Assembly (NCBI GenBank): GCA_963924565.1
Contig: OZ004612.1
Coordinates: 5,704,001-5,768,000, forward strand
Length of the DNA: 64,000 nt
Origin: Ascidiella aspersa
Lineage: Eukaryota
Direction of reading: 5' to 3'
The first letter of the stretch is position 1. Each line of letters starts with the position of its first letter. Both the position numbers and the translations under genes were made by a program. Below, piece after piece: positions 5,105 through 36,863 of this stretch. Below the pieces are notes generated by a model. It ran no database searches, was not told the origin of the DNA, and saw only the letters and a list, made by a program, of their open reading frames with translations.

Positions 5105-5310
5105 GCGTCCTCCTCCAGATCCAGAACTTCTTCGGGATCAGCAACGGATCGGCCGGCTTCATCCAGACCGTCTTCATCATCAGCTACATGGTGGTGGCTC
5201 CCTTGTTCGGTTACCTGGGCGACCGTTTCAACCGCAAGCTTGTGATGTTGTTTGGGATGTTGATCTGGTCGGGATGCACACTAGCAGCATCCTTCATCAC
5301 CAATAAGGAC
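5105..5310 (+). CDS. SPNS1: Spinster exon ([10 protein letters not shown]...SFITNKD)
   Basis: cccag|GC ... GAC|gtgagt; contains MFS motif [11 protein letters not shown]. Confidence 0.95.
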
Positions 5311-14300: not shown

Positions 14301-17300
14301 GTCTTGTGAGCAACTCTGTAACGATCTCGTGATGCTAAGTTTGCGAAAAAACGTCGCGAATTGATTTAAGAGACTCGTGCCGCCTAAGAAAGAAAGACAA
14401 TAGACAAAAAGCGCATGACGCGACATCGCGCTGCATTTTTGCGCAAAACGACGCGTCAGCATTTCAAGGGAAATCCCAGAAATCCGACAGAGAAGCATCA
14501 CTTCTGTCCAGTCATCATCGTTTCACCACTTTAAGTCTTTAAACGCGCCGCCCTATGATCATCAGCACTTTTATAACGCTCGTTGCTGTCGGGGTGGCTT
14601 TTGTGCCCACGCGACTAATAATTAATCGAGAGGAGCGCGCGCGATCGCGCCTGTGACGTCACATTTTGGATAAAGTCCATTGTGACGTGGGTTTCCCGGA
14701 AGAGAGTCGGCAATCGAGCGTTGCCCTGCTTGCCTCCCCCTCCGAAGTTTCTTCGTACGAGCGAGCGATTGCCCGGTATCGAGCAGGAGCAATCGAGTTT
14801 GCATAAGTGCCTTGTTTTTTTGGCCAGGTTTAAGTGCCCGCTTTATTTACTACAAGCTGTTTTTTTTGGGCGCCATTTTTTGACCGGTTTTGCAAAAGAT
14901 TCCTAGGGTGGCGTCAAAGATACAACTCGGAGACAATACTAAAAAAGAGAGTTTGAAAGTCCCCGATATTCCAAGGTTGATAGGTATCGAAATACCTTTA
15001 AAGGGAAAAACGTATAAGCTAAGCTTATTAACGTAACTACTTAGAAAAAATCGCAGTCTCTGCTTTTATAATTACACGAAAACAGATTTACAAATAATAT
15101 GTCCGGTTCGTTAAGTGTTTCTCAATCTTTTTATATCGGGGCGCACATCAATTACTTTGTTTTAAGGTATTATACATGCAAATATGCCAAAATGCGCCGA
15201 AAAGTTGGGCGCGAACTTGGCCAAAAAAGTGCCCAGGCCTTTCCATAAGGTGCCGCACAAATCGGCCAAGTGTGTTTCGAAAACCGCAGCGTTTTTTGTT
15301 CCTCGACTGGCAATTGGGCGACGCGAGTACTTTCTCTGCACTTGGCAAAATGACTGGCTGCGCGCTCGTTTCTTTGCACAACTACTGTAAGGCTAGGTCG
15401 CCTAAAGCAGCCGGTCAACTTGCGTTTTAGTTGTTTTCGCCGTTATTGGTGATATTAAACGCGCATAACCACTGTTAACGCGCGTTTTTAATTAAGATAA
15501 TTCTGAGAATTGTGATATTTTCTAAAGTTTATTACCGTGAACAAGTAAGCTACTATATAATAGTCTTGGAAAATTATAATAGTGTATAGTTGAGTAAAGG
15601 CACAAGTTAGCCAAAATAAGACTTTCAGCTGAGGTTAATGTGTATTGAATAAAGCAATTAAACAAATACCCTGTTTTTAACAGCGTAGTTTTTTATATAC
15701 TTCCACCATGATAGACGCGGTAAATTGCAACGATATATAACCGAGTTAAGGCATGTGTTGGCCTAAATTTGTTCGGTTTTGAAATCTTTCGGGCTTCCAG
15801 TTGAGGTTTACGAAATTTCAAGTTATAAAATCGAAAAAATGCCCAGTTTTCGACAGCGTACTGTCTGTGTAAGCACCTACATTCAGGATCGCAATCCAAG
15901 GCCTCATAATGCAGTTTGCAGACCAATCAACAAGGCGCCAATTGCGTACGAAGCGCGCACTATTTGCAGACCCGCTTATTCCAGGCAGTACCGGGCCGCC
16001 CTATCGCGCCGCTGCACAAATATTGACCCACTGTGCACCGGCGTCTACGCGTGCCCTGTATGTCCAGGGGGTTCCTGAATTGTTCCTGGCCAATTGGCGC
16101 CCAGAAATGCACCCCAAGCTTTCGGCCAGAGATTGTCTCGCGTTTTTTTGACTGGAGATGTCACGGTTTGCTTTCACGAGTAGCCCGAAATGTGCGACAC
16201 AATGCCTATCGTATGACGTCATAATGAACCGACTGTCTGGACGACGGAAAGGACCTAGTTTTTTTTTGCAATGTGATATTTCCCCCCATGTAAATTACTT
16301 TCTACGTTCCATAAATAAAGTCGACCAATTTTGAGTTCTAAAATTGACCAAAAAGTTGGCCCATTTTTTAGACCATTTAGAACCAAGTTTTGTTTCGTTA
16401 GTGAGAATATTTTTTTTAATTTGTCGCTAGTGTCATTAGATAATTATTTTAAGGTATTTTTTTTGCTTTGAAGTTAATTGAACTTTGTACCCATATATGT
16501 ACTTACGTAAGTTCTCTGAATTTTGATGACCTAAGGCCTTGTGAGTAAAATTTGTCAGCGGATTAATTACAATGGCCACTGGAGACCACTTTTGTTCAAG
16601 CCAATTAAACCTAAATGTAGGTCGAACGACTTGTCCGGTTTGGCGATAACCGATTGCGATAAGAGACAACTGAAGTTGTCCAGGGCTTGCCTCGGCCCAG
16701 CAGCACCGAAAAGGCCGCGCAGGAATTTCAACTTTGACTCGACGGAGTCTTGGCGAATACTTTAACCTAGTTTTTCCGCCACTTGAACCGACATTTCCAT
16801 TCGCTGGTGTAGAATTGCAGACGCCAAGCGAAAAACGAGAGAGAAAGAGAGAGACGGGCGTCGAAGTTTTGCCTTTTTCTCTTCCTTTTCTCGGTTCTTC
16901 CTTCATTAGCTGGTTTTGCGCCACGAGATTTCTGCTGGAGACCCAACCGGCGTACTTTAAGTCAAAAAACTGTTGTCACTTTTGTTTTAAACTTTATGAT
17001 TTAACTTTTGCTGGTTAGATTAAGGTAGCTAGTATAAAGTTTATTCCAGAAAATATATGGCACTATCAGCAGTTGTGTGTTACCCACCTCGTTTATTATG
17101 TTAAAGGAAACAGGGTTTGAGTTCGCATGATATCATAGCTTTGCGCTATTGATAGCACTGTAGGAGGTATATTAAACCTGAATATTCGCAATGGAATTCG
17201 TTCATACGGGAGAAGTATACGTCATTCTAACTGTATGATCTAATTTGCCTGTTTTAAACGGTGCTCATTTTGCTTGCAGTTGTGTGGTAATGGTCTTATA

Positions 17301-20300
17301 CCCGAGCTGTTACATGTTAGTATAAAAGTCCAAAGTAGTTCTGTTGAACCTGATTAAAGAGTCTTCGGCGGAAGTGTATACCAAATCACAGGTGATATTT
17401 TCATTTTTTTATTTGCGAATGGCTGAGAATTGACAACGATGTTCCTTAACTATATTAGCCTAACGACTAGTAAGAAAGTTATAGTTTAAATTACTTAACA
17501 CAGCGTGTTTTTGACCCAGTTTTGATACATGGTGCTTTGTAAATAATGTAGTTTGAAGAGGTTTTAATTAAACACTGTTTTTTTTTAAGTAAATTGGTAC
17601 TAGTCAGCTTTACTTCAATTTCAAAGTCAATAAAAATGGCTTTTCAGTTCCAAAAGCTACATCTATGCTTGCCAACATAATTCGCGCAATAAATGTTTTA
17701 AGATTTTTTTTAGTCATACCGGATTATTGCGAATCCTTAATAAAGATTTATCAAAGCTTATATTACAGTAGGTTTTAGCATTGCCATGTTAAAACTAAAT
17801 AAAGATATATTCGAAACCTTCAAAATGATTCCTACTTCCGTATGGGCGTTGATATTCTTACTACGTCCAACTAAAACCCCAACCATTATGCTCTGAAGTT
17901 AATAAAGATTATTTTTACCAAAACCTAATTTAAAAATAAACAGCCCATGTAAACCCCATGCCAAATGACTTTTACGTCTAGCTAGTTTGCTTTAAGGACG
18001 ATAGTCGTTGTAGCACTGGGTGAGGCTGACATTCGAAGCACTGTCAGCATACGAACGCGTTTACCTCAAAAATACGCTACTCTTAACGTGCGTAGAGCGA
18101 GCCAAGCGATCTCTGCAATGAATATACGTGTGGGCTCTTACAAATTGCCAACTTATCGCCACCGATATGGGTCAATGGCATCCACGAGTAAAGATACGAT
18201 TATAATTCCACGGCTCGGCACCGGCTTAAGGCCTAAGAGTCCGGCATTGGCGGCCGACTTGTGTTTTGCTAAAGCCACGATCAAAGGCGAATAGCCAGGA
18301 AGTGGCAATTACGCTCAATGCTCGGAATTTGCGGCCCGTCGAAGTGCGTAAGTCATAACAATTGCCCTCTTGAGAGTTCGATCTCGTTTTGAAGAATCGA
18401 GTGGACTTGGCGAAAACAGATTTTTTTTTAAATTAGGCTGGGTCGAAAGTTTGTAAATTTACCAATGTGTTTGTCTTTTTTACAAGTGCCAACTTATTAG
18501 ATATACCTTGTCTGCTGTGAGTAGTAGTTATATCAGCATCGTAAGCCGTTTAGTTTCTTCGTTTTTCTATTGGCTTAATTGTGAAGAATTTCAAAAAACC
18601 CGCCACTTTTTTCAATGCGTCGTACTGGTGAATAACTGGTTTAACAAGTGCTGCTCTGGTCATTAACAAATGTATTTATAAGGCTTAGTATCGTATAAGG
18701 GAAGGAAATAATCAAACAAACATTCCAACATTATTCGTTCCATAATTGGGTTCGTTTTTAACTTCACTCAGCCGGCAATATTTTACGCTAAATGACGTCA
18801 CTGGCATGATTTTGGGCAAGTATTTTACACCAAAAATGTCTAGCGGGAAGACACTAGAATGCAATCGGGCTGCTGGCCCGTTCCTAAGTAAAGAGCCCCT
18901 ACATTTTTCTATTGAAACAGCATTACACGCTTTTCCGCTTTGTTTGAATGTGCTTAGTATAAAGTCGCCTGCTACGTTTATTGTCCCTAGGGTCGCATAT
19001 CGGCTCAAATCAATCCCTCCTTATCATGACTTCTTAGATTCTTCGCCAGTTGGAATTTTGCCTTCAGGCCAACTGAGCCGCGTTGCCTTAAACAATGCTC
19101 AGGGATAATCGCCAAGTTTATTTATAGGCGCCGCTATATTTAGCCTTGTCGGGCTAAACCCGGTCTCTGAAACGGCTGAATAACGTAGATTAGCTCCTGG
19201 CGACATCCGAACTAAGGCAGGCCGACATAGTATGGCTTAAACTTCCGCTATTGGCGTTTTGCCGGCTGGGAAGGCTACCGGTTAAGCCGTGGCGTGTTCA
19301 AAATGTGGTTTACTTGGCTCTGCCTAAGTAAAGTCTTTGAACTCTTTCGGTTTTGGCCTTGTGGCGTTAAAATGAGTTAATTTCAACTTTTAGACGATTG
19401 AATTTAGGAATAAAAAAGTCCCTAACTTTACCTTTAAAAATAGTTTTTTAAATATAATACAACCCTAATCTTTTGGTTCGCTTATATCTTCCGATTAGCA
19501 AAAATTATTTGGTCGTTTTAATATAAAACACTTTGTTCCGTGTCAGTCGCGTATGATGAAGTCCCCCTATTAGCGACCCCGCCGATGCTCTCGTTATAAA
19601 AGTGTTTGCTCTGTTTGGCCAAGCACTCAAGGCGAAGGTCATACAAGGTTTGCTATTCTGCTAATTGGCACAGTACGTAGAAAGGGTGGCGTTCTTGAGC
19701 CGAGGTGGCAATGCACTGTTCGACTTGGCAGCTTGATGTTAACTGGCCGATGACGCGCTCCCGTTTGACTGTTTTACTGCGTTAGTTTGATGAAACGGTA
19801 GCTGGCTGTATAAGTACAGCTGCTGTGCGGTTCTGTATTGTAACACGGAGAGGTGCTTGCCTATGCGAAGCGCAACTGTATTACTTAACGTTTAGTTGCG
19901 GTTAGGTGTTTAGTATGTGGTATATGTGAAGTGTCCGCAAAAGAGTTTTTTTATGCTGAGAAAAAAGTGGTGACTTCGTTAAGGTTAAAGCAATGTTTTA
20001 TTTGTTTATTTTTTTCGCAGTTTCTCGGGCCTTAAGCCATTTTAGGCCTAAATATGCCCAGTCGGCGATTTCGACTGCGTTTTAATTTTACTTCCAATCA
20101 TAACAAGTAAATTAATGACACTGCATCGTCCACTACCAATGGGGCCGTATTCAGGATTCTGTTTAGTAAAATAACCAAATAAGACTTAGTACAGGGGTAT
20201 AAACTTACAAAATTAATCGTCCCAAATAAAAATAGCCTCACCCGAGATTCATTCAACGCAAGCGCGTGGTTCCATTTCACCGGTAGCCTTACTAAAACAG

Positions 20301-23300
20301 AGAGAGGCCGCTTTCTAGAAGGCAACTCGACACCCTGGCGTATTGTGCGCTGGTTCGGGACTCCACAGAGCCGCAACTTCCTACAAGAGGCAAGGGCTCC
20401 AATCCGAAGGGAGCGCTCTCAAGTCGAGCCCAGTGTAAGCCGAGCCGCCTGTAATTGCTGTTTCCCGAGCTCGGTCGCCCTTCTACTGCGCGCCGTTTTT
20501 TTCCTACTGGGAATTGGCGAGGCCTAGCTAGTCAGCTAGCAGCAGCAGCAGCTCTGGTAGTCGCCCAACAGCCCCGGTGCGATAAAGGCGGGAAAATCGA
20601 GCCTGGCCATGTGCTCCAGTGATGTGGCGCAGTCGATGCGTGCGCTCGCCAACGACAGGCTGTTATTTCAGCAGTTAATCGCCCCGTTTTCGAGCGGGAA
20701 ACGAGTTTTTACTAGATGACTTTGCGTTAACTTTGTCGCAATGTCTGCATATCTAAGTGTGACGCATTGGAGGTTTTGCTTGGTTTATGACGGTAAGTCG
20801 TATAGCACAACGCTGTGATATGTGTGGCCTTTGTGGAGAGGTTTTCGCTTTACGCGATATTCAGTTGGTACAAGATAAGCTAAGTTTCATTTTTGTTGCG
20901 CATAGACAACAAGTGCTTTCGTTTCTGAGAGCGATTCCCTTCTATTTAAACAGAAAGCGAACGTAAGCCAAAAGTTCAAGGTTTTTCTGTCTGAATATTG
21001 TTAAAATGCGACGAAATTAGGTTTAAAAATTTTAGCGCAAATCGCCGTATTTAGTGTTTCGTGGAACTCAGGTGCAAAAAACCTACCAACATCTGGCCAA
21101 GTTTTTGTGCTGGACACTCCACGCGCGAGCCGAAAGAGAAAGAGACCTTGATAAAAAAAGGCCGGCGCCAAGCTCCTATCGCAAGCTTAATCTGTAATCT
21201 TTGCAGTACAAGCCGGCGCCCGCCGCTATACTGCCGCGAACCGGGGGCCGCATTGCAGGCAGGTCTGTGCCAAGCGCGCCACCTGCTTAATGATTGATAC
21301 AGTGAGCTAATAGCGCGCTCGCCCGCCGAACCAAGCTCAGTCAGTTTGCGCAGCGCAGCGCCGGTTCAGTTCTTTGCCTTCTCGAGTTTTCCTGGCTCCA
21401 AATTACGTCATCGTTTCCGCTTTTCGTGGCGAGTCGGCGCCGGAATCGGCCGATCCTTGTGTGACGCAACAATCGGGCTGCTGGTAGCATTGGTGTGGCT
21501 GCTTTTCGATTTGTTCAGGCGAGGACGAGTTTTGCGCGCCTCTCAGGTTTATTAGTGTTGTAGAAATGGATGATTTGTCGCTGGTGGAGATTCCTACATG
21601 TTACCTGTAATCACAGTCCCATAAACCCTATTTTTGCCCTATTTGTCTATAGTCATTGTCATTTGCCTATTGTTCGAAAGTTCTCGAATATTTCGATTGT
21701 CGTGCATTGTTCAAGCCATTGTTCGGCCATTGTCTTTTAAACATCATTTTTCAAGTAGTACGTCCGCTTTCTCTCAGCCAGGCGCCTTGTGCAAAGCCCA
21801 ATCATGTCTACGCCGTTGGCGCGCAATTGCCTTCCACGCTTTGCTCTGTAGTTAGACAGATTGGCTTCTTGCACATAGCGCTTGATTCCAACCGGGCCCC
21901 TGCATCAAACCGGGCCACGGAGCTGACTTTCATCGCGACTTAAAAAGGATTTTTTCTCAGTTTTAGATCAGGAATGGACGGAACTTTTGCAGGTATAGTA
22001 AGCTTGCTAGGAAAAAAATTAGTAAAAAAATAGATTAAAATCTGTTTTTTCCAGAATTTTACGGCTGTAGACGTGGTATGCTAGACTATTTTCATTTCAG
22101 AAAAATAGAGTTTTAGTAAAATTGTGGTAAGTCCCTATTATTTTAGGCCGCTGTAGACACACGTAGATCGCTCGTATCTCTAGGTGTAAAAGGCAACCTA
22201 GTTAAAGAAAAGAAATTCGTTTGAAATCGAAATCAAAGAAAAATGTCCCGATTTTTCGACGTTTGCGAATTTAACCCTAATCCTTGTCGCATCGTGACTT
22301 TGGCAGGTGTCTTGATGCTCGAGCAAGATGATACATGGCCTAGTTATGTCCGCACATGTTTAATTCGCTGCCATGTTTGAGGGCGCTTGTACCAGGAAAT
22401 GTTCGAACCGGCAGCTGCTGATCGTAAAACCTTGTTGCGCCTATTTCGGGGCCTATATACGACAGACTTTGGACCGGGAACATGCGAAGAAATATTTCTA
22501 AATTTGCCTTTTTTTACTTCGGTAAAATTAGTTTACCACGAAACTTGTTACAAATACCGACTTAAATCTTTTTAATTCGCACTACAAACAAAAGAGAGGA
22601 ATTTTCGCAAATTTGTTCATAATAACCGTGTTTTTTCGTATAAATTTTTCCAACACAAGCAAGGTATTTTGCCAAACATGTCAAATGCTAAGAAAATTTG
22701 TTTTTTGTAATTTTTTTTGTTTTAATTAGCTTCTCTTGTTCGTTATACCGGCGTTTTCTTGTAAATTATGCAATTTTTCACCGTTAAAGCGTTAAAATCT
22801 ATCAGATACGATTCGTAAAATCTGTCAAACCCAGTTTTATAACCGTAAACGTTCCAGGACTTGCATTAATTTGAAACTCGGTCTTTAGCATTCTTATCTG
22901 GCGTTAAGGCAAAGTTAATGAACTACCGAGTACGCCGGTCGAGCTGTCACCGTTGTGCAGCAGCAAACGATCGGTGCCAGTCGCAAAGGGCTCTGTAAAC
23001 TCGCTACTTTTCTTTCTACCACCTAAGCGGCGCGTGCCTGCAAGTCTTACTGGTTGAGTACAGGCAAAAAAACCAAACTTTTATTATAAGGACGCGGAGG
23101 TCTGTAATTAGCTGTTCATTTTGTTATTAACGCTTTCAGTAGCTTTTATTACCCCAATTTTGCCCTGCTTTTTTTTAAGTTCACATTCTATGTTGATTAT
23201 ACGTCTGCTGTATCCTAAGAGAGTAGCTTCGCTGTTTGAAATTCACTTGTATTTTTTTCATAATTAAGAGCAAAAACGCACACATTTTATTCTGATAGCC

Positions 23301-26300
23301 TCATCAGAACAGCTCCTATTTCCAAAACGACCACCCGAACACTTAACAGAAGTTTAACCGGCCAGTGCATTTCTTTTTACCAGTTTACAAATGGCCGGCT
23401 CATTTTAGCAACACCCTTTGTTTTTGCACCAATAAACGAAAATGCAAGAAAGTTGATAAAAGCAAGTCTGTTTTTTTTTTTTTATAAGAACAATGGTCTG
23501 GAATTAAAAAAAATGTGACAACTCGCCTCCGGAAAGCAATCTTCCCGAAAACAGAAAAAATTGAGAACAGAAAAAATAACGGCCTTTAAAAACCTGGGAA
23601 CAAAACGGTCTAAAAAACGGAGGGAAATTTTGTTTTGAATTATTTCAAACGAAAAACTATTCCATCTAATTCAATCTACCATAACACCCACAAAAAACAC
23701 GAAACGTGGCCCAAAAGTGAAAAGTAAAAGAGAAACGTACAAAGTAATAAACAAGAAAAAAACACTGCTTTTAAAAAGAAAATGCCTGGGAACAAAACCG
23801 TTTAAAAAAGGGATAGACAAGTTTTTTTTAACTTTGCAAAGAAAAATATCCAATCCACCATAAACCACCAAGATCATGAAACATGACCCAAAAGTGAAAT
23901 CGGAAAGTGTACAAATTAGAAAACCCAGCATCCCTTCAGCGAACGGAAAGCCTTCGCCTCCTATACTCTGCCCAAGATTAGCTCGCCGTTGGCTGTTCGC
24001 CGCTCAGCAACGGGTTACGTTATCGCGCAGGAATTCGCAGCTCCCCGCTTTGTTTGCTTTATCGTCCTGGGCGCGGGCGTTTTCGGCGAGGCCTGTGCAA
24101 CGTACCAGTGCTACTCCTCCTTCTGCTACGAGTGGTTCCGGCATCTTAATTCACATGCCACCACCGGTTTGTAGTGCCGCTATGGCAACGCACGGCCTGT
24201 TTTCGCGGCACCATTCTTCGGTTTGGTTTCAGGGAGATGTTTGTCGAAAGTTTGGCGTAGCAATTGTTGGGGTTGTCTTAAAAAGCCGAGTTTCCTTATC
24301 AATTTAAAAAAAATCACGATTTTTCACACTTTTTTTGGTGTCTAGATTTAACGGGGCCACTGCTTTGCTTATATCAAGTGTAAAATTGATTTGCTGTAAA
24401 AAATGTTTACTTATACATGTGACACGGCGCACCGAGCATTCTTTTTGTATATATTACTAAACGAAAGCTTTCCATGTTGACTGCTGGGCATGTGCCTCAG
24501 GCCAAGTTACAGGGATCGAAATATTTGGCGTGTACGCGTTTAAAATTGTGGCTGCAAAATTTCGAGCGCTGCGTTTGGCAAATAGCTCGAGTACATGATT
24601 TACCTCACAAAACTTTTTATATGTTTTGTGATTTTTGTACTCACGCTGTGTTAGAGCGTAGAGCAGGGGCATGCTTAGACAAAATTTTATGTACGGTTCG
24701 TAGCTTCGGTGTAGTGCTATACAAGGCACCAAATGAGCTACTTTGTTGAGCAACTGGCCCAAATCTCAAGGCGTGGCTTCAGCAGGAAGCTTTGTTTGAC
24801 AGAACCGCCACCTTTATTTGGCCGAACCGCGCAAACTTCGAGGCCCTTTGTTGATAAACAATCGCTGCGACCGATTTTCAACAAGGCGGCTCAGATTTGG
24901 GTCGCCCCACTGAAGTTTGCTGGTCGCTTGGGAGTTTGTGTAGACTTTCGAGCGCTGTGAGTGGCGGGCCGTAATTGCCGCGTCCAAAATACTGAGCTAA
25001 GCCATATGCTCAAATGTAAACTACAGGAAGCGCGAACTTGGCCCAGTTTAATGGCCAATCCGAATAGAGACGGCCCTGTATTTTAATCAAGCTTTTGTGT
25101 TATAACCCTGTTTGTTTTCAAGGCACCAAATTAGTTGCTTTAACGCGCACATGGCCCTGTTTAAGGGCCTCTCCGAAGATAGACGACCCTGTTTTAAGCA
25201 ATACTTATGTGCTTTAATATACCATTATTTTGGCCATTATGAAGCAGATGTATCGATTTTTATTATAGTGTGCCGTTTTCCTGAAATAAAGCAAGCTTCT
25301 TTTTAAAGTAGTCTTATAATGTTGCCAATAGGGATAGAAAGGCAAAAAACCTGGCCTGGCGCCTTATAAAACGGCCTCGTTACCAGACCAACTCACTCCC
25401 TTTTGGGCAACAAGTTGACAAGCGTGTTTTATTACTCCGTTCCATTGTTGTTGTTATTTATCAGCAAAAATGTATCAATTCTCAGTAAACAACAAAAGTC
25501 TACCATTCGTTAATTCAAAGCTCAGCCAAAACGCAAAGCCAAGCCTCACAGACCAGTAACCAGTTTCACTTGCTTGCTAGTTGTGCGCTCGTCACAATCC
25601 AACGTATGGTTTCCTTCGTTTCAGCTTGTTTCGGCTTCGCGCCAGCCCGGCTATATCCTCAAAGGGAGTCTTCGAGGTCGCTTTATCTGTCGGTTTGTCC
25701 CGTAACTTGTAAAGCAGCTTGCGAAATTTCGATAAAGGGCGATCGCGAACTCTCGTTGTACACAGGGCCCAGCAACTTGCACGCGATAATTGATTCGGGT
25801 TCTAATTTCCTCCTCGTAAAATCTTAGACGAGGAAGTACTGTCGTATGGGGCGTATTTGCTTGTACAATTTTGACCACAGTCCTATAACCAGCAAGCAAC
25901 GCTTTAACTGTTTTTGTTGAATTTTCGGTTTTTGGCGGTTTCTTTGTTGTACAAGTCGTTTACGATCGTTGTAATTTGACCAGTGTGTGTCTCAATTAAC
26001 GACGGTAATCAGGTGGCACTATCTTATAAAGACAAATTATATTGAATTCTTGAGAACTTTCGCACAACCGTGCTGCATCAGGTTAAAGTAAAAAATACTA
26101 AAAATCTAAAGCTATTTTTCTACTTTGACCTGATGAAGTACGGTTGTCCGAAAGCGTCAAGATTTAAATACAATTTGTCTTTATATAGTGTCATTCAATT
26201 ACCCTCTTTATTCTAATACGGTCATTTACAAAGGCCAATTAACTATTGAAGTTCTATCAGTGGATCATCAAAACTCCCTTACCTTGTACCACACGCGCTC

Positions 26301-29300
26301 AACCTTGTGCATATCACGGCCCATTGTTCTAATGAGATAGACCTCACAACTCAAGCATCTGTGTTTCTTTTGCAGTGGCTTAGGATACATTGTTGGTTCG
26401 GGAGCAGCACAAGGCTTTGGATCATGGCACTGGGCACTCAGGGTAAGTCGACTAAAATCAACCTAGAATTTAAAACTGGTGTGTGGATGATAAGCGTTTG
26501 TTTTAGTATCTGAGGAACTTGTTTTGATGTGCTGTTATGAGTGTTTATTTTTATTTTTTTCTTAAGAAGTAAAAACGATTACAATTTTATTCAAATTTTT
26601 ATAGCAATCTGCCTGGGCCTTTTTTCGTTCATCGGTCAAGATACTTTGCGGAGCCGAAACGACTTGTGTTATTCAAGTTGTGTTCCTATTTAAAAAAAAA
26701 TATGTAAAATTGTTCTTTATCTTTATTTATGCATGAATATTGGTTTACGGAAAGTAAAGGAATTACAAACCTTAAAAATTTAATTTATAAACTTCTGAAA
26801 TTCAACAAGAAACAGTTTTAAAGTTTTTTTTTTATTGTCTAAAACAAATTTGGAAATACTCCATTTAATTATAGTAAGAAAATCAACATCACGTCATGTT
26901 GGAAATTAATAAAGAGGTGTTCGAAACGTTCAAAATGACACCTTCTGTATGGGCTTTGATATTCTTACTACGTCTTACTACAACTCTAACCAATATGCTC
27001 CAAAGTTTTAAATCACTTTCTCCTAAACCGCTCCACTCAATCAAATAACCGGAGGTTCTGTTGCCCAGGTAACGCCTGGTCTCGGCGTGATCACCATGAT
27101 CCTTATGATGGTGATCATCCCGAATCCGAGAAGAGGCGCTTCCGAGATCAAAGAGCGACCGGTCGTCCTTGAAGTGGCTGAACCCAAGGTCACTTACCTC
27201 AATGACCTCGTGTACATCATCAAGAAGTAAGTTTGATTGACTAAAGGAGTAAGTTTGATTGACTCCCACTTTGATTGACTAAAGGCTTGTTTGCAAGTTT
27301 GCTTAATTTACCTCCGTTGTTTCCTTAAAGGCCTTCTAGCTGTACAGCCCCTATGTGTTTGGCAAAATAAGATATAATAGGTTTGCATTCGGCTCTGGTT
27401 GATTTTTTTATATTTTTGTTGAAGTGGGCTTGAAGTGTGGTTTACAGGGTTTGACCACGAAAACGAGAAAACCATAACATGATAATGGCATTTAAAATGT
27501 TTCCCACTGTATTTTGTTTTCTTTTATTCAAACTAATATAGATCGACGTTAAAAATAGAAATTCACGCAACCAGAAGATTTAACAACGTTTATTTTACTA
27601 TATTTGAAAGAAAAATATCACTTTTCCTAATGCTTCTATGTTAACTTAAACTTGCTGCTTTTTAAATTTAACAACAGGCCTTTAATTCGTAGACCAAACC
27701 TCGAAAAAAACGTTCTTAATTTGAAACACAACCACAGAACTCTGCTCGTTGTGATGTAACAAGCGCCCAAATAACTCTTGTTGTTTTTTAAACCTCGCAG
27801 CAAGAGCTTCATCCTGGTTACGATCGCATTCACCTGCATGGCTTTCGTGGTTGGATCGCTGACCATCTGGGGCCCGATATACGTGGCCTACTCACAAGTG
27901 GCCACCGGCGCCCTGGCCCCTTGTACCGACGACGCCTGCGAATATGGAAAGTAAGTTACTCGGTTTCAATAAAGCAGCTGAAATTTAATTGTTTTTTTTT
28001 TAAACTGAAACGGTTTAGTAAGTTTTTAGTGTACGGTTTGTGTGATCATAATGTAAGAGGCCATCATTTATAGAAGCGTTATTACAAGCACTTGTCAGCG
28101 AAAATGTCCCTTTTCACAAACTTTTTACCCTTTTTTCTCCAGGCGTTTTTACGAATAGATAACATGGCAACTCTTAGGTCTTTAATTGGCGTTTTTGGGT
28201 CAAATATACTGATAATAGCGTATTATTTTTGTTATTTGTCACGGGAATAAATTCTCTATAGTTTTACCACTTACGGTCCTAATTTTAAAGCCTCGCAAGG
28301 CGACGTATTTTAAAACTAATCTTTAGTTTTCCTGACCAACGCGACCTCGCCCCGACTTATTCGCTCACTCCGCCACCTAGCGAGTTTTGCACAGTCCAAA
28401 GTAGCACTTGCCAAAATCCAAAGAGTATAAGGGCTTCCCTATAGGAGCTTACTGTTGGGCCCTACTCTATATAACTGACCCTTTAACTTGTCGTTTTGCT
28501 TCGACAGCGTTTCCTTCATCTTCGGCCTGGTCACTTGCCTTGCTGGTTTCTTGGGCGTCGTGATTGGGGCGGAGAGCGCAAAGTACTGGAAGGATAAGGG
28601 GAGAAAGGACGCCGATGCCCTGGTGTGCGCAATAGGTGAGTTTTGATGGAGAGCTTTTCTTGCAACTTCGAAACCTCAAGTTCGATATAACAGTAGAAGC
28701 TTGTATATATTGATGAAAGTTTCTTACTACAAAATAAATAAAAAATACAAATAAATACAGTAACCAGGCATGTAGAAAATTAGTTGTAACCAGGCATGTA
28801 GAGAAATAAGCTCATATATAAAAAGGGCTTTGGCTAATATTTAGAACTTAAATTTATTATATTTTCGCCGTTAATGTTGCCCAACATAAGCGACTTCTTT
28901 TATTACGAAAAATGTTTAAATATGCTTTTGCTATTTATATTTTTCGCCCAATTGCAATATCATTGCCCTTATAAAGATTCCCTGTATAGGTTGATCGAAA
29001 CGTCGATATATTGCAAGCAGAACATTTTACAAATGATGTCCCTATATTTGAGTGAAACAAATTTCTGGATAGTTTCTTAAAGATAGGTATACTACTCAGC
29101 TTAGCACACGGGTTTGCACGGGAATTGTCATGAAAGTACCCTTTTTCAATACTCATTGATTTTTGATGGTTTGTTTCTTCACAGGTTTGATTCTTGCCGC
29201 ACCCCTTCTGCTCATGGGATTTCAATTCGCTGAAGTTAATCTTCCCTTATCGTGGGTAAGTTCGGCTGCAATATGTGACATTACAATAAACTGCATACCT

Positions 29301-32300
29301 GTATAATAAACTGTATATAATTCAACCTGTTTGCTAAATTTGTAATTTTGTATTAAGATTTCGCTTGTTATGCTTTGAATTTTAAAACGCTTAATATTCA
29401 ATTTTTTTCTATTTTTCTGCAGTCGTGTATTTTCTTCGCGGACACCGCCATGTGCTTAACTTGGACACTAGTGGGCGACATGACCATGGTAAGATATTGA
29501 GTAAATCCCTGAAAATTTATTTGTATCAATATAAGTAAGAAGAGCTTCTCATTGCAGAAAATCTTAAGCAGTTAGCCATGCTTCTTATAATTTGTTTTTT
29601 CACCATTGTGTTCAACAACGAGTTCATTTTTTAAAGCAATGTTTTAGGGGGCGTTTTTTACCCTTTTCACGTGTTTGTTTTACCCACGATTAAATTATTT
29701 GCCCTAATAAAGGCACAATAGCTGGCTGCAAAAATCCTCTACACGAAACCTAGTTTTAAAAATCCAACCTTTAAATGAGTAGCTCGTAAATATAACAGAA
29801 CACGGTAAAAATAATTTAACTGTTTAAATGATGCCGACGTGCGTGACAACACAATACCCATTGTCATTTAGTACGTAACGATGCCGAGCCGACGGTCGAC
29901 CGCCAATGCAGTCCAGATCCTCACAATGCACTTGTTCGGCGACGCTGGAAGTCCCTACTTGCTTGGAGTGGTGAGTTTGAACTAGTTTTGCATTCATAAA
30001 ATTGTTGGCTGTCTTACTGGGTCAATTTGCAGGCTCAACCATGTGCAAGCGTTGGCTCGAATCTCATTTTTGAACACACGGTGTTCTGTGTCCTGTTAAT
30101 ATTGCCAAGTCAGACGGGTGAAGAAATAACTTACGCTTTAAATGCATAGATTTTTGGATATTTTACTCTGAAAGTTATAGTTTCTCACCCAAATTTTATG
30201 AACGAAATCTGATGCCGCTGCATGAGTGCTTAATTTTAAAGCTCTAAATACTGTTGCTTTTTAAAATATTTAAAGAACAATTTCAGTTAAATGCGATTCA
30301 TTTTCTGTAGCCTTACAATATTCAAGCATTATAAAAAATATGCAAAAAGCATAACGTAACGCTCGGTTTAAGCGCCAAACTATCCTTTTCCTGTCGTTTA
30401 TTCTTTACTTTTTTCCGCCTAGCTCTCGCGACAATTAAAGTTAAAGAAGCTGTGGCAATACCTTTATATCGAGACCTCATTCGGTAGGAATATCAAAGCT
30501 CACATACAAGTATGTGCAAATTTTTGCACTGATTTATGGCGTTCTCACCATGTTGAAAATGAATAAAGCGTTAAAAAACGTACCCAAAATGTCTCCTACT
30601 TATGGGCTTAGATATTCCTACCCTGGGCTTAGATATTCCTACCAAGTCCCAACTAAACCTCCAACCATTATCCTCGAAAACCTTCTACTACGTTGGCAAA
30701 ATTTTACCACTTTGTTATTCTCCCAACTAAAACCTCCAACCATTACGTTCAAAAACCTTCATATCCTTGAATTGTTTTAACCTTTTTTCTCTCCTCACAG
30801 CTTTCCGATTCTCTGATCGCCAACATGGACAACAGCTTCTACAGCAAGTACATCGGTCTGCAGCGAGCAATGTACGTAACGCTCTTCGCCGCCATCCTGG
30901 GAGGCGGTTTCTTCCTCATGGCTGCCCTCTACATCGTCTCCGACAAGAAGAAGGTCGACGACCAGCTGGCAGGTGCGTGACGTCACTGCTCGTGACCTAA
31001 TCGTATTTTTGTTCTAGAAATTTCGATAGTCCAAATGTGCCCCGATTCGAAGTTAGGGGTGTTATTGTTGTCTAAGAAAAGTGATGGTTTGAAGTTTTAA
31101 AAGAATGTTTTTATTGCCTTACTATAGCATGAAAAAACAAAAAAAAAATACATAAAATAATAGAACAAAATAAAACTTTGGTCTTAGGCGGTAAACAGGC
31201 TTAGAGAGTGCCGCAGTAAAACTGAATTTCAGGCCGTTATTTGGTCTTTTTTGCTATGCACCTTCAAATCGGTTGGATTTCTTACCTCTAACTAATGAAA
31301 TTGAGGACTGTTTCTTAAGCGGTCATGCACTCTAGTCTAAAAAATAAGAAAGTCATTAAAGCATTTTGTGTGAAGTGAGTTAGTGTAACGTCTTTTGAAG
31401 TACCCTTGGTAGATTCTTAGTGTATGCTTGTTTCACACGACGCCACCCCTTTTTTTCCACCATTCTTTTCCCAATTGACACGAGTAAAAAAAAATCGGGC
31501 CGTGTACATTAAAAGAGGCCATGTACAAAAAAACCAATGGGTGCAGAGGTCTTGCGTTTTTAAGTCACAAACCTGTGGCAAGCGTACATTCTTATTCGTC
31601 AGGCGTCGTCCCATCTCGTCGTAAAGCCTCCTTTGATCGGGACGGGGTTGAGTTTGTTCTCATCAGCATGGAATCCGTCGTATGACGTCATCTTTCTTTC
31701 TTCTCTTCTACTTCTCCCTTCCGCTTCCAGAACTTTCTCGCAAAACTGTTTTTTTTTGCCACGAATCCTTAAAAGGATGTTTCTTCGCTTTTAAGTAAAA
31801 AAAATGCAGTAGAACTGTAAATCACTGTGATTTTTCTTTTTCTTTTTAACTTTTTCTTATTTCGCTTTACTTTTTTCTTGAAATGCAAAATAAACTTTAC
31901 TCTTGTTGTGACGTCATCGCTGTGTTGAGTGAGGCCAGGCGGCGCCGTGACGTCATTGTGACGTCATCCAAGGTAATCTTTGTGGTCTTGCCGAGAAGTG
32001 TTTTGTGCAGTTTAAAGTGTGAATGATTCTTCTGCAACGTCCAAAAAATCATCTGACTTTGATTTTTTTTCGGGTATTTGATCAAATTTAATGCTTGATT
32101 CTTGCTTTGTAGAGTCTGATTAAATGACACTGTTCGTAAAAAATACACGCATTGCTTCCTCATTTCACTGGCCAGCTTGCGCAAGTTTTCGCAGCACACG
32201 ATTGTAGCAAAACAATTCAATAAAAAAATAAGGCCAACATCTTTAATGAAAACCTTTGAAATTCCTTACTACGTCACAATCTGTATCATAAAGTGACGTC

Positions 32301-33311
32301 ATATTCTTGAATACAAGGCTGGTACTTTGTTGTTTTGCATTGCTTTTGTAGTGTTGTTAAACGGAATGTGTTCTACTGCGGAATATTGAAGTGCTTGAAC
32401 ATTGGGAATTTATGCGTTTGTTTGCTCCTTTCTAAGACTATTTGCAACTAATGGATTGCAGTTGGTGTTATTTTTACATTGTGACTAAAAAACCTAAACA
32501 CACAGCTTTGAAAAGTCTTTGAATCTTTTTTATACAATTGTGCGGCAACTCTGCATCAAAGCATGTCGCGAACATTTTATTAGCAGATTGCAAAGCAAAG
32601 AAGCTCTTTTAAGACGGCGTCTTTACAAAGTTTGATCCGGCTGGCTGTTTGTGTTTAAACAGTTTAAAAACTAAAATTATTAAAGCGTTCAAATTATGCT
32701 ATCCTCACTTCAAACTGAGATTTAATATCGACCTGCTTCTTACTTTTTAAATTGTTTACTTAATACTTAACTTAAAGAAAAGCTTTTAATATTACAGCAT
32801 TGATATTCACGCTTAAATAAATTGGCCACTTTCCGTGCCACGGCCAATCCACTTTTGAAAATTAACGCTCACCGCTCACCTTTGCTTTTCAGGCAAGTCG
32901 CCGACTGAGAGCACGTCTTCCGACACAAACAGCACACCGCTGAGCACCGACGCCGAATGCTACAGCCGCGCCGAGCTGGACACCTGCCCCTACCCCACAA
33001 TCAACGGCGCCGAGGGGGACACCTTTCTGCGGCGCGACAGTCGCGCAGAATCCGAGGACTACGACAACTACCTGTCGGTGTCGCCCCTCGAGAAGGAGCA
33101 GGCGGCTCAGCGGCAAAACGAGGCTCGAATCCCCGCGGAAAAGCCGATCGTCGTCGTTGTGCAAGAACAGCGGGAAACGAAGTCGAAGCGGCTTACGGTC
33201 GAAGTTGGCTGCACCGGGGAACCGGGTTCGGGTCCCAATTCGAGCCATAGCAGCATTTCGAACGGTTCCGATATTGCGCTGCTGGTCGACGGGAGCGAAA
33301 GCGTTGTGTGA
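5105..33311 (+). CDS. SPNS1: Spinster-family MFS transporter (SPNS1-like), 5'-partial, spliced: join(5105..5310,10212..10363,26376..26442,27069..27226,27801..27950,28508..28635,29185..29255,29423..29488,29872..29970,30801..30972,32893..33311)
   Basis: All junctions are GT-AG and phase-consistent (1688 nt plus 1 nt from the upstream exon = 563 codons including stop). Spinster motifs present: [73 protein letters not shown]. No NYMDR (TM1) exon was found in 1-5104. Orthology to SPNS1 versus SPNS2/3 is not resolved. Confidence 0.93.
5533..5574 (+). ncRNA. Minimal type I hammerhead ribozyme motif (second family), sense
   Basis: AUUAA-CUGAAGA-U-GAUAC-aagcuc-GUAAC-GAAAC-GUC-UUAAU: 5-bp stem I, one mismatch in stem II, GUC site, predicted cut after 5569. 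Confidence 0.72.
9399..9706. mobile_element. hAT-type MITE (308 bp)
   Basis: TIR CAGGGATGTCCAAC...GTTGGACATCCCTG, perfect 8-bp TSD ATCTAACC (9391-9398 and 9707-9714), subterminal TGCGGCCC repeats. Confidence 0.92.
10212..10363 (+). CDS. SPNS1: Spinster exon ([19 protein letters not shown]...AIPIG)
   Basis: ttccag|CAA ... GGAAG|gtgagt. Confidence 0.95.
12686..12754 (+). promoter_or_regulatory. Intronic promoter-like module: CLEAR/E-box, GC-box, TATA
   Basis: GTCACGTGAC 12686-12695, GGGCGTGG 12705-12712, TATAAATA 12747-12754 within a CpG-rich island. Confidence 0.55.
13156..13412. mobile_element. Foldback MITE with 8-bp TSD (GG termini; Merlin/Mutator-like, superfamily uncertain)
   Basis: Near whole-length palindrome GGCGCTCCTTC...GAAGGAGCGCC; TSD CGATTTTC at 13148-13155 and 13413-13420. 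Confidence 0.85.
26005..26205. repeat. Inverted pair of a third hammerhead-family element (degenerate cores at 26050-26086 minus and 26125-26160 plus)
   Basis: Arms are imperfect reverse complements; the plus copy reads ttgac-CTGATGA-agtacggttgtcc-GAAAGC-gtcaa. Confidence 0.7.
26376..26442 (+). CDS. SPNS1: Spinster exon (SGLGYIVGS...WHWALR)
   Basis: ttgcag|T ... AGG|gtaagt; phase matches the previous exon (AG+T=Ser). Confidence 0.95.
26896..27008 (+). repeat. Unclassified ~115-bp dispersed repeat (representative copy)
   Basis: Consensus about ATGTTGAAAATGAATAAAGAGGTATTCGAAACGTTCAAAATGATACCTACTTCTGTATGGGCTTTGATATTCTTACTACGTC; other copies near 12832, 17785, 30550, 47601, 47720, 50950(-), 51097, 53152, 59557, 62995(-), 63142. 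Confidence 0.85.
27069..27226 (+). CDS. SPNS1: Spinster exon (VTPGLGV...LVYIIK)
   Basis: cccag|GTA ... AAGAA|gtaagt. Confidence 0.93.
27801..27950 (+). CDS. SPNS1: Spinster exon (NKSFILVT...CTDDACEYG)
   Basis: cgcag|C ... GGAAA|gtaagt. Confidence 0.93.
28508..28635 (+). CDS. SPNS1: Spinster exon ([13 protein letters not shown]...ADALVCAI)
   Basis: gacag|C ... ATAG|gtgagt. Confidence 0.93.
29185..29255 (+). CDS. SPNS1: Spinster exon (GLILAAPLL...PLSW)
   Basis: cacag|GT ... TGG|gtaagt. Confidence 0.9.
29423..29488 (+). CDS. SPNS1: Spinster exon ([10 protein letters not shown]...GDMTM)
   Basis: ctgcag|TCG ... ATG|gtaaga. Confidence 0.9.
29872..29970 (+). CDS. SPNS1: Spinster exon ([11 protein letters not shown]...[14 protein letters not shown])
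   Basis: tttag|TAC ... GTG|gtgagt. Confidence 0.95.
30801..30972 (+). CDS. SPNS1: Spinster exon (LSDSL...last TM...KKVDDQLA)
   Basis: cacag|CTT ... GCAG|gtgcgt. Confidence 0.92.
31603..31685 (+). CDS. SPNS1: Putative alternative terminal exon, short C-tail (G)[26 protein letters not shown]
   Basis: ttcgtcag|GC acceptor in the same phase 1 as the donor at 30972; open to TGA at 31683-31685; ends in the same ESVV as the distal terminal exon. Confidence 0.7.
32893..33311 (+). CDS. SPNS1: Spinster terminal exon, long C-tail (GKSPTES...[14 protein letters not shown])
   Basis: ttttcag|GC phase 1; GC-rich open frame continuous with track ORF 33078..33311. Confidence 0.88.
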
Positions 33312-34453
33312 CGTCATTGATCACGTGTTTTCCGTTTTGTTTTCGCACCTCAGACACAAAAAATTTATTCTGACGGAATGATCGAATATTTGCTCGCTCC
33401 TTTGGAAAAATTCGGATCACTGTAAAATCTCGACGCGATTAAAGGCCGGTCTCGCTGTTTTGCGATCGATCGACGGTCGGCAAATTATTTTCAAAATCTT
33501 TTTTGCGTGCTTTTGTACTCATGTTTAAGCCGTGCGATTTCTGTTCTACCAAATTTTCTTTGAAAAAACGCTAAAGCGTTAATTTCTGCTAAAATGCCTG
33601 AATTATAAAAACGCATACAAATGCAAAAGACTGGTTAAAAGTTTTTTTTTTAACATTTTTAAAGGCCGTCTTGTTACACCGTGGTGGGTTTGAGGCGGCA
33701 TAAGCTTTTTCGTCGATTTTCTTAAAAGTTCATTAAAAGCTGTTAATTGTGATTTTTATTTCTGCCGAAGCCATTCAGTTATTTGACATTTGTGCTCCAT
33801 CCGTATCGAAACTAAAATATATTCTATTTATTCTTTTTCCCTTTTCATTCGAAAATTCTTTTTTGCTACCTTATAGCCTCTAAGGCTGCTGTTTTTTGAC
33901 CAACACGCGTACGAATGTGCTTGAACTTTCTGATATGTGCTTACATACGCCGAACAGAATATTGCAAACTTTTTAATTTATCGTGCTGTGAAGCTTTTTT
34001 TTTTGGGGGGGGGGTAATTTTTGGGCTCCTATGGCTGTCGTATCTCGATTTTTCGTGTGTCTGACGTAGTAGCTGTAAGTGTCGTTTAAACAAGGTGTCT
34101 GATTGGTGCAGCAACCGCAGTACGTTGTAGACGCACAATGCCATTTCATGGTGCCACAAATAGTTAAAACCGAATGTTTATCAGTTAACTTTTAACAGCA
34201 AGGCTTTTAGGCAACTTTTTTGCGTGGTTTGCAGCGCATTTTTTCCACCTTCTTGATTTCCTAGTTACATTACATTGCTCAGTGCTAACAAGTAAGCTGT
34301 GGCTTTCAAAAATCACTCAATGCAATTTTTCACATCGTATTGTTTCGCCACTGTTTTTGTGCCCGGAGCTAATCAAAATCAACCCGCGTTTCTCCAACTT
34401 ATTCACTCGCTCTTTGACAAATGAGTTAAGCGATTATATCAGTCGTTATAGCA

Positions 34454-34781
34454 CAGGGTTCTTAAAACTGGGGTCCACGGACCCCTCGGGGGTACGTAAA
34501 CTAGTTTTAGGGGGTCAATAAAGACCTAATTGAAATATTAGGGTATACTTGTGAAGTAACAAGGTTTTTCAAAGTTTTTTTCCAAATAAAAATAAAACGG
34601 ATATGCACTGAATGTATTTAGACTCCATTTCACTTTCACATTTTTTCACCGTAATCAGCAGGTTTACGAAGTGTATTTGTATTGTGACGTCAATTTATGA
34701 CGTCATTTTTGAATTTTTTGTGGACAAGCGAAGTCGAAAAAAATTTAGAGGTTGGCGTTAAAAAAAGTTTAAGAACCCCTG
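34454..34781. mobile_element. hAT-type MITE (328 bp) downstream of the spinster stop codon
   Basis: TIR CAGGG(G)TTCTTAAA; 8-bp TSD TTATAGCA at 34446-34453 and 34782-34789. Confidence 0.9.
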
Positions 34782-36863
34782 TTATAGCACAATACTAGTG
34801 CTTGTTCCACTTCGCATTATATCCGTACGGTATGTTACCTGGTAAGACCTATGCACCACCAGTCCACCACCGCCGTGTTATAGTCTTTTCTGCGCAAAAT
34901 TTCCGATGCAAAATCGATATCGACGCCCATTGTACGGCGTTTTTTTTTCTCCAAAATTACTTCTTTCTTTTTCGTAGGATTCCTGTAAGCCGTCATTTTA
35001 ATGTTGTTTGTGTGCCAATAATGGTTAGGGGGGCTTGCGTTAAAACTTGAATGAGCTAATCTATTTTCTGGGATTTTTTTTTCAAGTGTATCATCTCTGG
35101 GTCAAGGTCAAATCTTCGGGCTTCAAGGTCACTCGCCTCAAACCGTTGTCAAATTGCTGTGCTTGTCGTATCACTCGCCCCTTTTTGGCTTTTTTCTCTT
35201 TTTGGTTGTAGTGCGTCTCGTAAATTATTATAATCGTAGAGAAAACACGTTTTCTATGTCTGAATCAGAAAGCAGTAGTTAATAACTTATGTGGTGAATG
35301 CCAGTTAGCTTTTGTATAATAAAACTTGAAAAGATTTCAAAAAAAAAACAAAAAAAACAAACATAAGTATTTGAAAGATTTCAATTAAGAAGAATGGCAG
35401 TAAACCAAGTTATTTTAACATAAACATAACATTTTTAGAAAACGTAGTTGTTTTAACTTAAACCTTTTTTAGGCAAGAGCCAAGAAGGCAGGGTTAATCA
35501 TAATCGAAATAAAGCGTTGTTCGTATCCTGGGAGTAAGTTAATAACCCCAAAGAGGTAATTTGCCATTTTTTGTGCATATCTTTAAAAAGATTCATATGC
35601 TATCTCTGAAATCAAAATAAAAAAAAAGTTCAGTCTTCTGATTTGTTTGTATCAGGTAATCCAATATTCAGATAATTTCAGTGTTGTTTATTCGCTAATT
35701 GACAGCACGTATAACTTTAAATCTTTTAAAAACCTTCAATATTTTTGCGGAGAGAATAAATACAAAGTATAAAAGCAAACACAAGAGAAAGGCAATTAAT
35801 ACAGTACAACAGGAATCCGGTTCGGAAAAAAAAGATGCCGCTAGGTAGAAGTAGAGAAAGATAGTCATTACAAGATACACCAGAAAATATGTGTAGGCTG
35901 AAATTATCCTAAACAAAAGGGTAATTAAGTTGCTCGCAAATATTCGTTTACCTGCCATACAAACGAAAAGTGCTTAATCAGTACAACAGACCTCCAAGAG
36001 TCTACTCCGTCACCAATTGACTATTTAAAAAGTGGAAATAAAATAAAAGTATCTTTTCCGGGTGTTGCAATCTTGTCTCTTTAGTATCAAATAACTTAAA
36101 ATGATTTTCAACAAATCTTGCATTGCACAAAAAAAGTTTACTATGTAATCTAGAGAAAAACAGTGCAGCACATAAATGAAACTTGGCCCACTTTAAACAA
36201 ACCGCTTGCTGTTTTGAATTTGAACCACATTTGCTTTAATTAAAAATGATGTTTTATTAAGTAAAAAAAAATCGCCTGTGACGTCACAATTAGAAGCTTC
36301 TGGAATCTAGACAACAATTTAACTTTTACTGTATTTGACAAGTCAACCACTCTTAAAAGGAATTCAACGTGCAAAGATTCTGAGAGACTCGTTTTCCGTC
36401 TAAATTGTTAATTAGGCATCTGGTCAAAAGAGGTCTAGGCAATCAGGTGAATTGCTTTAGGTGCAGGCAATCATGAAGTCATGCATTCGTGTGAAAAATA
36501 CTTCTGCATGTCAGACAGGTTCACAAGTAGAAGCAACTGCAAGCAGGGAAATAAGAAGAATAGTCCAGAAAAAAATGTGAGTAAAGATATGGAATGCACG
36601 TTTTAATAATTTGCTTTTCATTAACTGCTGTGAACTATCAATTATAAAATTGTTCATTACATTAAAAATGTAGGCTACTTACAACATACAATAAATTTCA
36701 TACCAACTTACTTTGTTTTTTTATGTAATAAAGACGCAACTATTCCAGAATACGACGATTCCAACAATGCTAGAACATGGTTAGAAGATGAAATTGAAAT
36801 CCGAGGAAGATTGCCAATTAAAAAATTCAGTAAGAGTTAGTTATTATATATTTCTTTATATTG

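Follow-up and report, generated by a model that had tools for sequence, protein, structure and literature searches.

Two predicted C-terminal tails with a common ESVV ending in a spinster transporter gene of the ascidian Ascidiella aspersa

AP adaptors recognize sorting motifs of the tyrosine and the dileucine type. Alternative C-termini are a known design among transporters, and the gene described here would follow the pattern of DMT1 (SLC11A2), likewise a 12-helix transporter in which alternative last exons lead to different C-termini (available sections of PMC3103463). In DMT1-II the sequence YLL drives retromer-dependent recycling (available sections of PMC4584283 and PMC13004025). The accessible part of PMC13004025 also gives [FYW]x[LMV] as the VPS26 consensus, and reports that SNX27 binds [DE][ST]x-hydrophobic ends and so links cargo to recycling.

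Among the spinsters, vertebrate SPNS1 is lysosomal and proton-dependent and SPNS2 is a plasma-membrane S1P uniporter. How a spinster is sorted to the lysosome versus the surface finds no explanation in the papers found, though SPNS1 and SPNS2 differ exactly there. The Drosophila spinster/benchwarmer gene produces at least five transcripts (PMC2171373, in the sections available), and in Xenopus and bird SPNS2 records (P0201–P0207, P0034, P0216) the last helix is followed by either of two conserved tails. The alternative tail of Xenopus SPNS2 ends S-I-L, which is class I PDZ-like. The literature searched, with subscription papers and supplements lying outside it, held nothing on spinster tail isoforms, PDZ binding or an ascidian spinster, and the available portions of PMC6929180, PMC11698090 and PMC1796609 are silent both on the sorting of spinsters and on the stop-motif cluster described below.

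The window, that is, the whole 64 kb stretch of Ascidiella aspersa DNA analyzed here, contains a gene which by homology is a spinster (SLC63) transporter of the MFS type. Pfam MFS_1 was above cut-off on two of the four shared exons scanned, and all seven PDB matches to exon 3 are SPNS1 or SPNS2. In a midpoint-rooted tree of 26 rows, all of the spinster family, the Phallusia spinster (79% identity) is sister to the ascidian gene with support 100/98; the window gene falls in a tunicate clade of 13 rows (100/100), which is sister to vertebrate SPNS1, SPNS2 and SPNS3 jointly (98/99). Searched against the whole genome, the last shared exon gave one match and exon 3 one strong match plus another at 35% identity (E 1e-3), so that the gene appears to be single copy. 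Used alone in the homolog search, the last shared exon found no matches.

The exon model consists of 12 shared exons bounded by AG/GT, whose joined core of 525 amino acids contains no stop, followed by one of two tail exons. Coding exons 1 and 2 map upstream of the window (L004 194–299 and L003 3595–3797). Exon 3 (5105–5310, + strand) was placed by Pfam MFS_1, tblastn, the exon model and residue mapping, and eight further shared coding exons, located by tblastn with four ascidian spinsters and by their AG/GT ends, occupy 10212–29970 on the + strand (10212–10363, 26376–26442, 27069–27226, 27801–27950, 28508–28635, 29185–29255, 29423–29488 and 29872–29970). The last shared exon (30801–30972, + strand), which has a phase-1 GT donor, matches residues 492–536 of SPNS2 as well as SPNS1 chains and by homology would encode the final two membrane helices. 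An internal Met in exon 2 corresponds to the position at which the Phallusia record starts, and a later-starting form occurs in Clavelina; N-terminal spinster variants without the dileucine-like motif discussed below may thus also exist. Two high-copy repeats are found in this part of the window, one near 34450–34780 inside the 3' UTR, where DNA depth reaches up to 94,000 against 48 in data set X1, and a second (30506–30706) in the intron that precedes exon 30801–30972.

Exon 30801–30972 joins in frame either to an acceptor at 31603, giving a tail of 27 residues, or to one at 32893, giving a tail of 139. The coding parts of the two tail exons are 31603–31685 (27 amino acids including the split codon) and 32893–33311, both on the + strand, and the former is unique DNA with one genomic copy. 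Both frames are open, their products are 552 and 664 amino acids long in the gene model, and both end in ESVV, as an earlier note on this DNA had claimed. CAG precedes each acceptor, and nine (31603) and ten (32893) of the 12 positions scored are pyrimidines, the range among the ten other acceptors of the gene in the window being 8–12. The short tail runs from a basic patch with serine through FDR (31632–31640) and FVLI (31653–31664) to ESVV (31671–31682) and a stop. The long tail carries YLSV (33069–33080), S-x-x-x-L-L (33267–33284) and ESVV (33297–33308), again followed at once by the stop. In 1500 shuffles of the intron a candidate acceptor yielded an E-[ST]-x-[VIL] ending in 2% and any class I ending in 51%. 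We are highly confident that the two-tail structure is a real feature.

The Ciona intestinalis ortholog, spinster homolog 1 (76% identity over 450 aligned residues), is represented in RefSeq by isoforms X1 (XP_002119843, 677 aa) and X2 (XP_018670661, 552 aa), which part at the same junction as in Ascidiella into a long tail versus one of 26 residues, both ending E-S-x-hydrophobic. RefSeq X-isoforms are usually backed by transcript evidence. In both the Ascidiella short tail and the X2 tail, FDR lies equally far from the junction, the core is [FY]-V-[LI] and the end is E-S-V-hydrophobic. Their global score of 27 was reached in 0 of 2000 shuffles, and in 10 of 2000 when the last four residues were held fixed. 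Scanning the intron for YAG acceptors followed by a frame of at least five residues gave 24 candidates, among which 31603 matched the X2 tail best (27; runner-up 6), and none of 600 shuffled introns attained this score. When the short tail was compared by BLASTP with the complete X2 protein, the X2 tail was not recovered; it was found by the tail-to-tail test alone. The expectation that the short frame would be conserved in a related species is thus borne out, and on the evidence of one other species, Ciona, the hidden exon is supported as a conserved alternative tail. The long tail has 35% identity with that of Phallusia (E 2e-13). In the contig set X3, introduced below, differences numbered 4 in 514 positions around the short exon versus 16 in 284 in the intron ahead of it, a drop that is weak when set against the downstream piece (p 0.054).

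Elsewhere among the tunicates, when the C-terminal region of the Ciona protein served as query, one of 12 matches, X2 itself, had a short tail, and all four members of the Clavelina cluster carry the long tail. At tunicate locus L002 the long ESVV tail is present and the search for a short exon was not significant (70/600 and 26/600 shuffles). A stretch there, 3891–3975, has FD equally far from its acceptor and FVL in another frame, and was rejected as a short exon on the shuffles. The 23-residue tail of P0130 resembles the window short tail (3/2000 shuffles; 21/2000 with the end fixed), but it is unlike that of Ciona (284/2000) and was therefore not counted as a homolog. P0130 belongs with P0013, P0128 and P0129 to a deep-branching spinster of the tunicate clade whose 3' end comes in two versions from the same junction onward, an immediate stop or the 23-residue tail ending ESVC. 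Comparison of the short tail with the tails of SPNS1 and SPNS2 was not significant (173/3000 at best, for the SPNS1 tail). Of the 65 matches in a HMMER search, most were fragments of exons translated on into introns; the search contributed one further long tail (P0135).

Two sets of RNA-derived sequence cover the locus: contigs X3, recognized as RNA by depth pattern, without a library record, and raw reads X4, chosen by species label. X3 acts like spliced RNA, with implied exon lengths of 172, 99 and 67 against actual lengths of 172, 99 and 66, and covers the 172 bases of exon 30801–30972 at depth 62. On the long exon, X3 coverage sets in with a contig at 32890, at the common CAG where both paths meet, with depth 77, and this marks the long splice as the main one; the long form is spliced and dominant in the RNA contigs. 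From 31504 to 32919 three further contigs have depths of 8.6, 8.3 and 9.1, while other intron pieces have 0–3.4. The first of these begins 99 bases ahead of the acceptor and shows no break at 31603. Such coverage agrees with a minor form entering at 31603 and continuing through the long exon, and also with slow removal of the last intron or its plain retention. In X3 the short form would not exceed roughly one ninth of the long form.

The RNA check proposed in the earlier note thus came out in part: the long splice is seen as the contig from 32890, while among the joints listed, which fall mostly in the repeat near 34500–34760, there is neither a 30972–31603 nor a 30972–32893 joint. X4, of which about 6% of the run was used, has depth zero over 31109–31912, an outcome whose chance for a form making up 7–12% is 0.04–0.38. 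X4 sense-strand reads also cross the upstream intron 29501–29902 at depth 3–4, which suggests retention or precursor. One might conclude that the short exon is unused in Ascidiella, as a frame open by chance or the remnant of a decayed exon, and that the RNA over it is unspliced precursor. The missing short joint, the zero depth in X4, the reads in the upstream intron and the lack of a clear equivalent in L002 all agree with this. Against it, acceptor, frame and stop are intact, the similarity to a Ciona isoform that parts at this junction was equalled in 0 of 600 shuffles, and X3 depth is raised from the short exon onward. We consider it very unlikely that the exon is unused, and infer that the 30972–31603 splice is used in this species.

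The position of 31686–32892 would make it 3' UTR in the short form and intron in the long form (+ strand), as X3 contig depth suggests. AATAAA does occur after the short exon at 31889 and 32219, as had been noted, and again at 32816 (+ strand); use was seen for none of the three. Three such sites compare with 1.8 expected from the 95 in the window, which is chance level, and X3 depth does not fall past 31889 or 32219, although contigs cannot show ends or levels; no peaks of transcript starts or ends are listed. The suggestion that the short exon has its own polyadenylation therefore finds no backing in these data. The long-form 3' UTR, probably common to both forms, extends over approximately 33312–35215 (+ strand); X4 sense-strand depth is 9–25 to about 35130, and the last of the X3 contigs listed reaches 35215.

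Both stops are located inside TGACGTCAT, at 31683 and 33309, just as reported earlier. This motif contains 14 of the 986 TGA in the window and 6 of the 47 in 30973–33320, and the probability that both stops would lie in it by chance is about 0.014 at the local rate and 0.0002 at the window rate. The palindrome TGACGTCA occurs seven times in 30973–33320 (2.35 kb; at 30978, 31683, 31909, 31948, 31959, 32294 and 33309, one of these being 5 bases past the donor) versus 22 times in the 64 kb window. Several of these 22 copies sit in repeat copies with identical flanks.

One could assume from these stops that the short exon began as a copy of the long exon's 3' end together with its stop, maybe with its own poly(A) site. 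ESVV and TGACGTCAT are identical at both stops, each tail has a hydrophobic run 6–9 residues ahead of its end, and the two Ciona tails both end K-E-S-x-x. Nucleotide similarity upstream of the endings was matched by 6–33 of 2000 shuffles in three of four scoring schemes, but by 272–400 in the fourth, and in those three schemes 9–11 of 270 real exon windows match as well. The alignment also requires two frame-breaking gaps and ends at the stop motif, with no similarity past it (330/1000). At the protein level there is no similarity beyond the last four residues of the window tails (401/2000) or beyond the ending of the Ciona tails (812/2000). The serines of the two ESVV are encoded by TCC and AGC, which belong to separate codon families, the L002 long tail stops at a TAA outside the motif, and the steady X3 depth after either AATAAA speaks against a separate poly(A) site. 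Thus of the earlier proposal of a duplicated terminal exon a marginal nucleotide resemblance remains, which weakly suggests such an origin; duplication as the full explanation seems to us rather unlikely. We think it most likely that the two ESVV endings have been kept by selection for the same partner.

Fourteen long-type tunicate tails, among them two pairs of close relatives, were available for a census of motifs. The end is [ST]-x-hydrophobic in 13 and [DE]-[ST]-x-hydrophobic in nine, so the class I PDZ-type ending, found on both window tails, is kept across tunicates as far as sequence can tell. Each window tail corresponds at its free C-terminus to the SNX27-type definition [DE]-[ST]-x-hydrophobic and is a predicted ligand. 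Y-[LIF]-S-[VIL] is present in 8/14 long tails, that is, in all eight outside the Styela-containing clade and in none of the six inside it, which upholds YLSV as a predicted YxxPhi signal. Seven of these eight also have S-x-x-x-L-L near the end, the conserved residue by the leucine pair being the serine four places ahead. An acidic residue is canonical at this place, and the serine is perhaps phosphorylated. Two other motifs which had been taken for endolysosomal signals do not hold up as conserved: the GGA-binding type DxxLL is in 2/14 long tails (the window gene and Phallusia only) and YPTI in 1/14. These counts point to YLSV and to the leucine pair preceded by serine as the likely candidate signals of the long tail, rather than to the GGA-type motif or YPTI. 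The short tail carries a conserved core of its own, which was overlooked at first: FVL in the window gene fits the VPS26 consensus, and Y-V-I of Ciona is one step outside it.

A further S-x-x-x-L-[LI] is found N-terminally in 11/12 tunicate proteins and, given a weak GTGGGG donor, spans the exon 1/2 junction of the window gene. This dileucine-like motif would be common to both forms, so that an all-or-none switch of location is unlikely and any shift would be graded. Overexpressed human SPNS1 without residues 1–55, its C-terminus blocked by a fusion, was located in lysosomes and at the surface like wild type (PMC11725778, in the part available), which implies that the tails may matter little. 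Both observations, together with the low share of the short form in X3, are in keeping with a reading in which the short form is made yet differs from the long form in neither task nor location, the conserved ending has a single partner, and splice choice alters mainly 3' UTR length or expression level. It is difficult to reconcile this with a long tail that keeps a tyrosine motif and a dileucine amid poorly conserved sequence and a short tail that keeps a different core, and we regard it as possible but doubtful.

On balance we lean towards a modestly probable scheme in which two acceptors give a main long form directed to endocytosis and the lysosome and a minor short form directed to recycling and the surface, both being likely SNX27-type PDZ ligands. 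The minor mRNA would enter at 31603, continue across the distal exon and share the 3' UTR of the long form. AP adaptors would bind the tyrosine motif and S-x-x-x-L-L of the long tail, leading to endocytosis and lysosomal delivery. Retromer would recognize [FY]-V-[LI] in the short tail and return this form to the cell surface, while both tails would bind an SNX27-type PDZ domain through ESVV. With the N-terminal dileucine-like motif in both forms, the difference in distribution would presumably be one of degree.

The transport mechanism itself may differ from that of SPNS1. The proton sensor was defined after section 7 of PMC11725778, with S442 left unmapped; at the positions of human SPNS1 E87, D94, S97 and R300 the window gene has Q, N, A and Y, and each of the four sensor residues is missing from all 13 tunicate rows. 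Lacking this luminal sensor, the gene does not fit the definition of an SPNS1-type proton-coupled lysosomal exporter. Both partners of the D94–R300 salt bridge, which is common to SPNS1 and SPNS2, are replaced in 13/13 tunicate rows. The sites of these changes lie in exons 5105–5310, which encodes the Q, N and A, and 27801–27950. Of the SPNS2 residues, Q130 and A140 are present in the window gene, and D137 and R342, which form a pair in SPNS2, are absent. According to the available sections of PMC11725778, SPNS1 E87Q/S97A is active at neutral and low pH; taken with the missing sensor residues this predicts that the ascidian spinster is independent of acid, in which case location could decide function. 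An oyster row is also without all four sensor residues, and two other invertebrate rows keep one each, so that the absence is not special to tunicates and is no proof of a surface role.

One may go further and suppose that in tunicates, the invertebrates closest to the vertebrates, the single spinster is a pH-independent lysolipid carrier in which splicing splits an SPNS1-like lysosomal job (long form) from an SPNS2-like, S1P-exporting surface job (short form), the two having later become separate vertebrate genes. We think this improbable. If the short form does export lipid at the surface, it would represent a way in which the roles of SPNS1 and SPNS2 could part before gene duplication; otherwise it would be an ordinary minor isoform. 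Ciona, where this pair of tails is also annotated, would offer a simple test system, with one transporter body bearing two natural tails and candidate signals singled out by conservation.

For Ciona, RefSeq already records the two-tail structure, which is described in no paper within the literature searched; the Ciona X1 and X2 isoforms are database predictions for which this literature gave no functional description. The Ciona endings are similar to each other and not identical, whereas those of Ascidiella are identical. DMT1 is of a family unrelated to spinster, and the Ascidiella tails, as known from their sequence, additionally end in a class I PDZ-type ligand. Finally, Ascidiella has apparently one spinster gene where vertebrates have three (SPNS1, SPNS2 and SPNS3).
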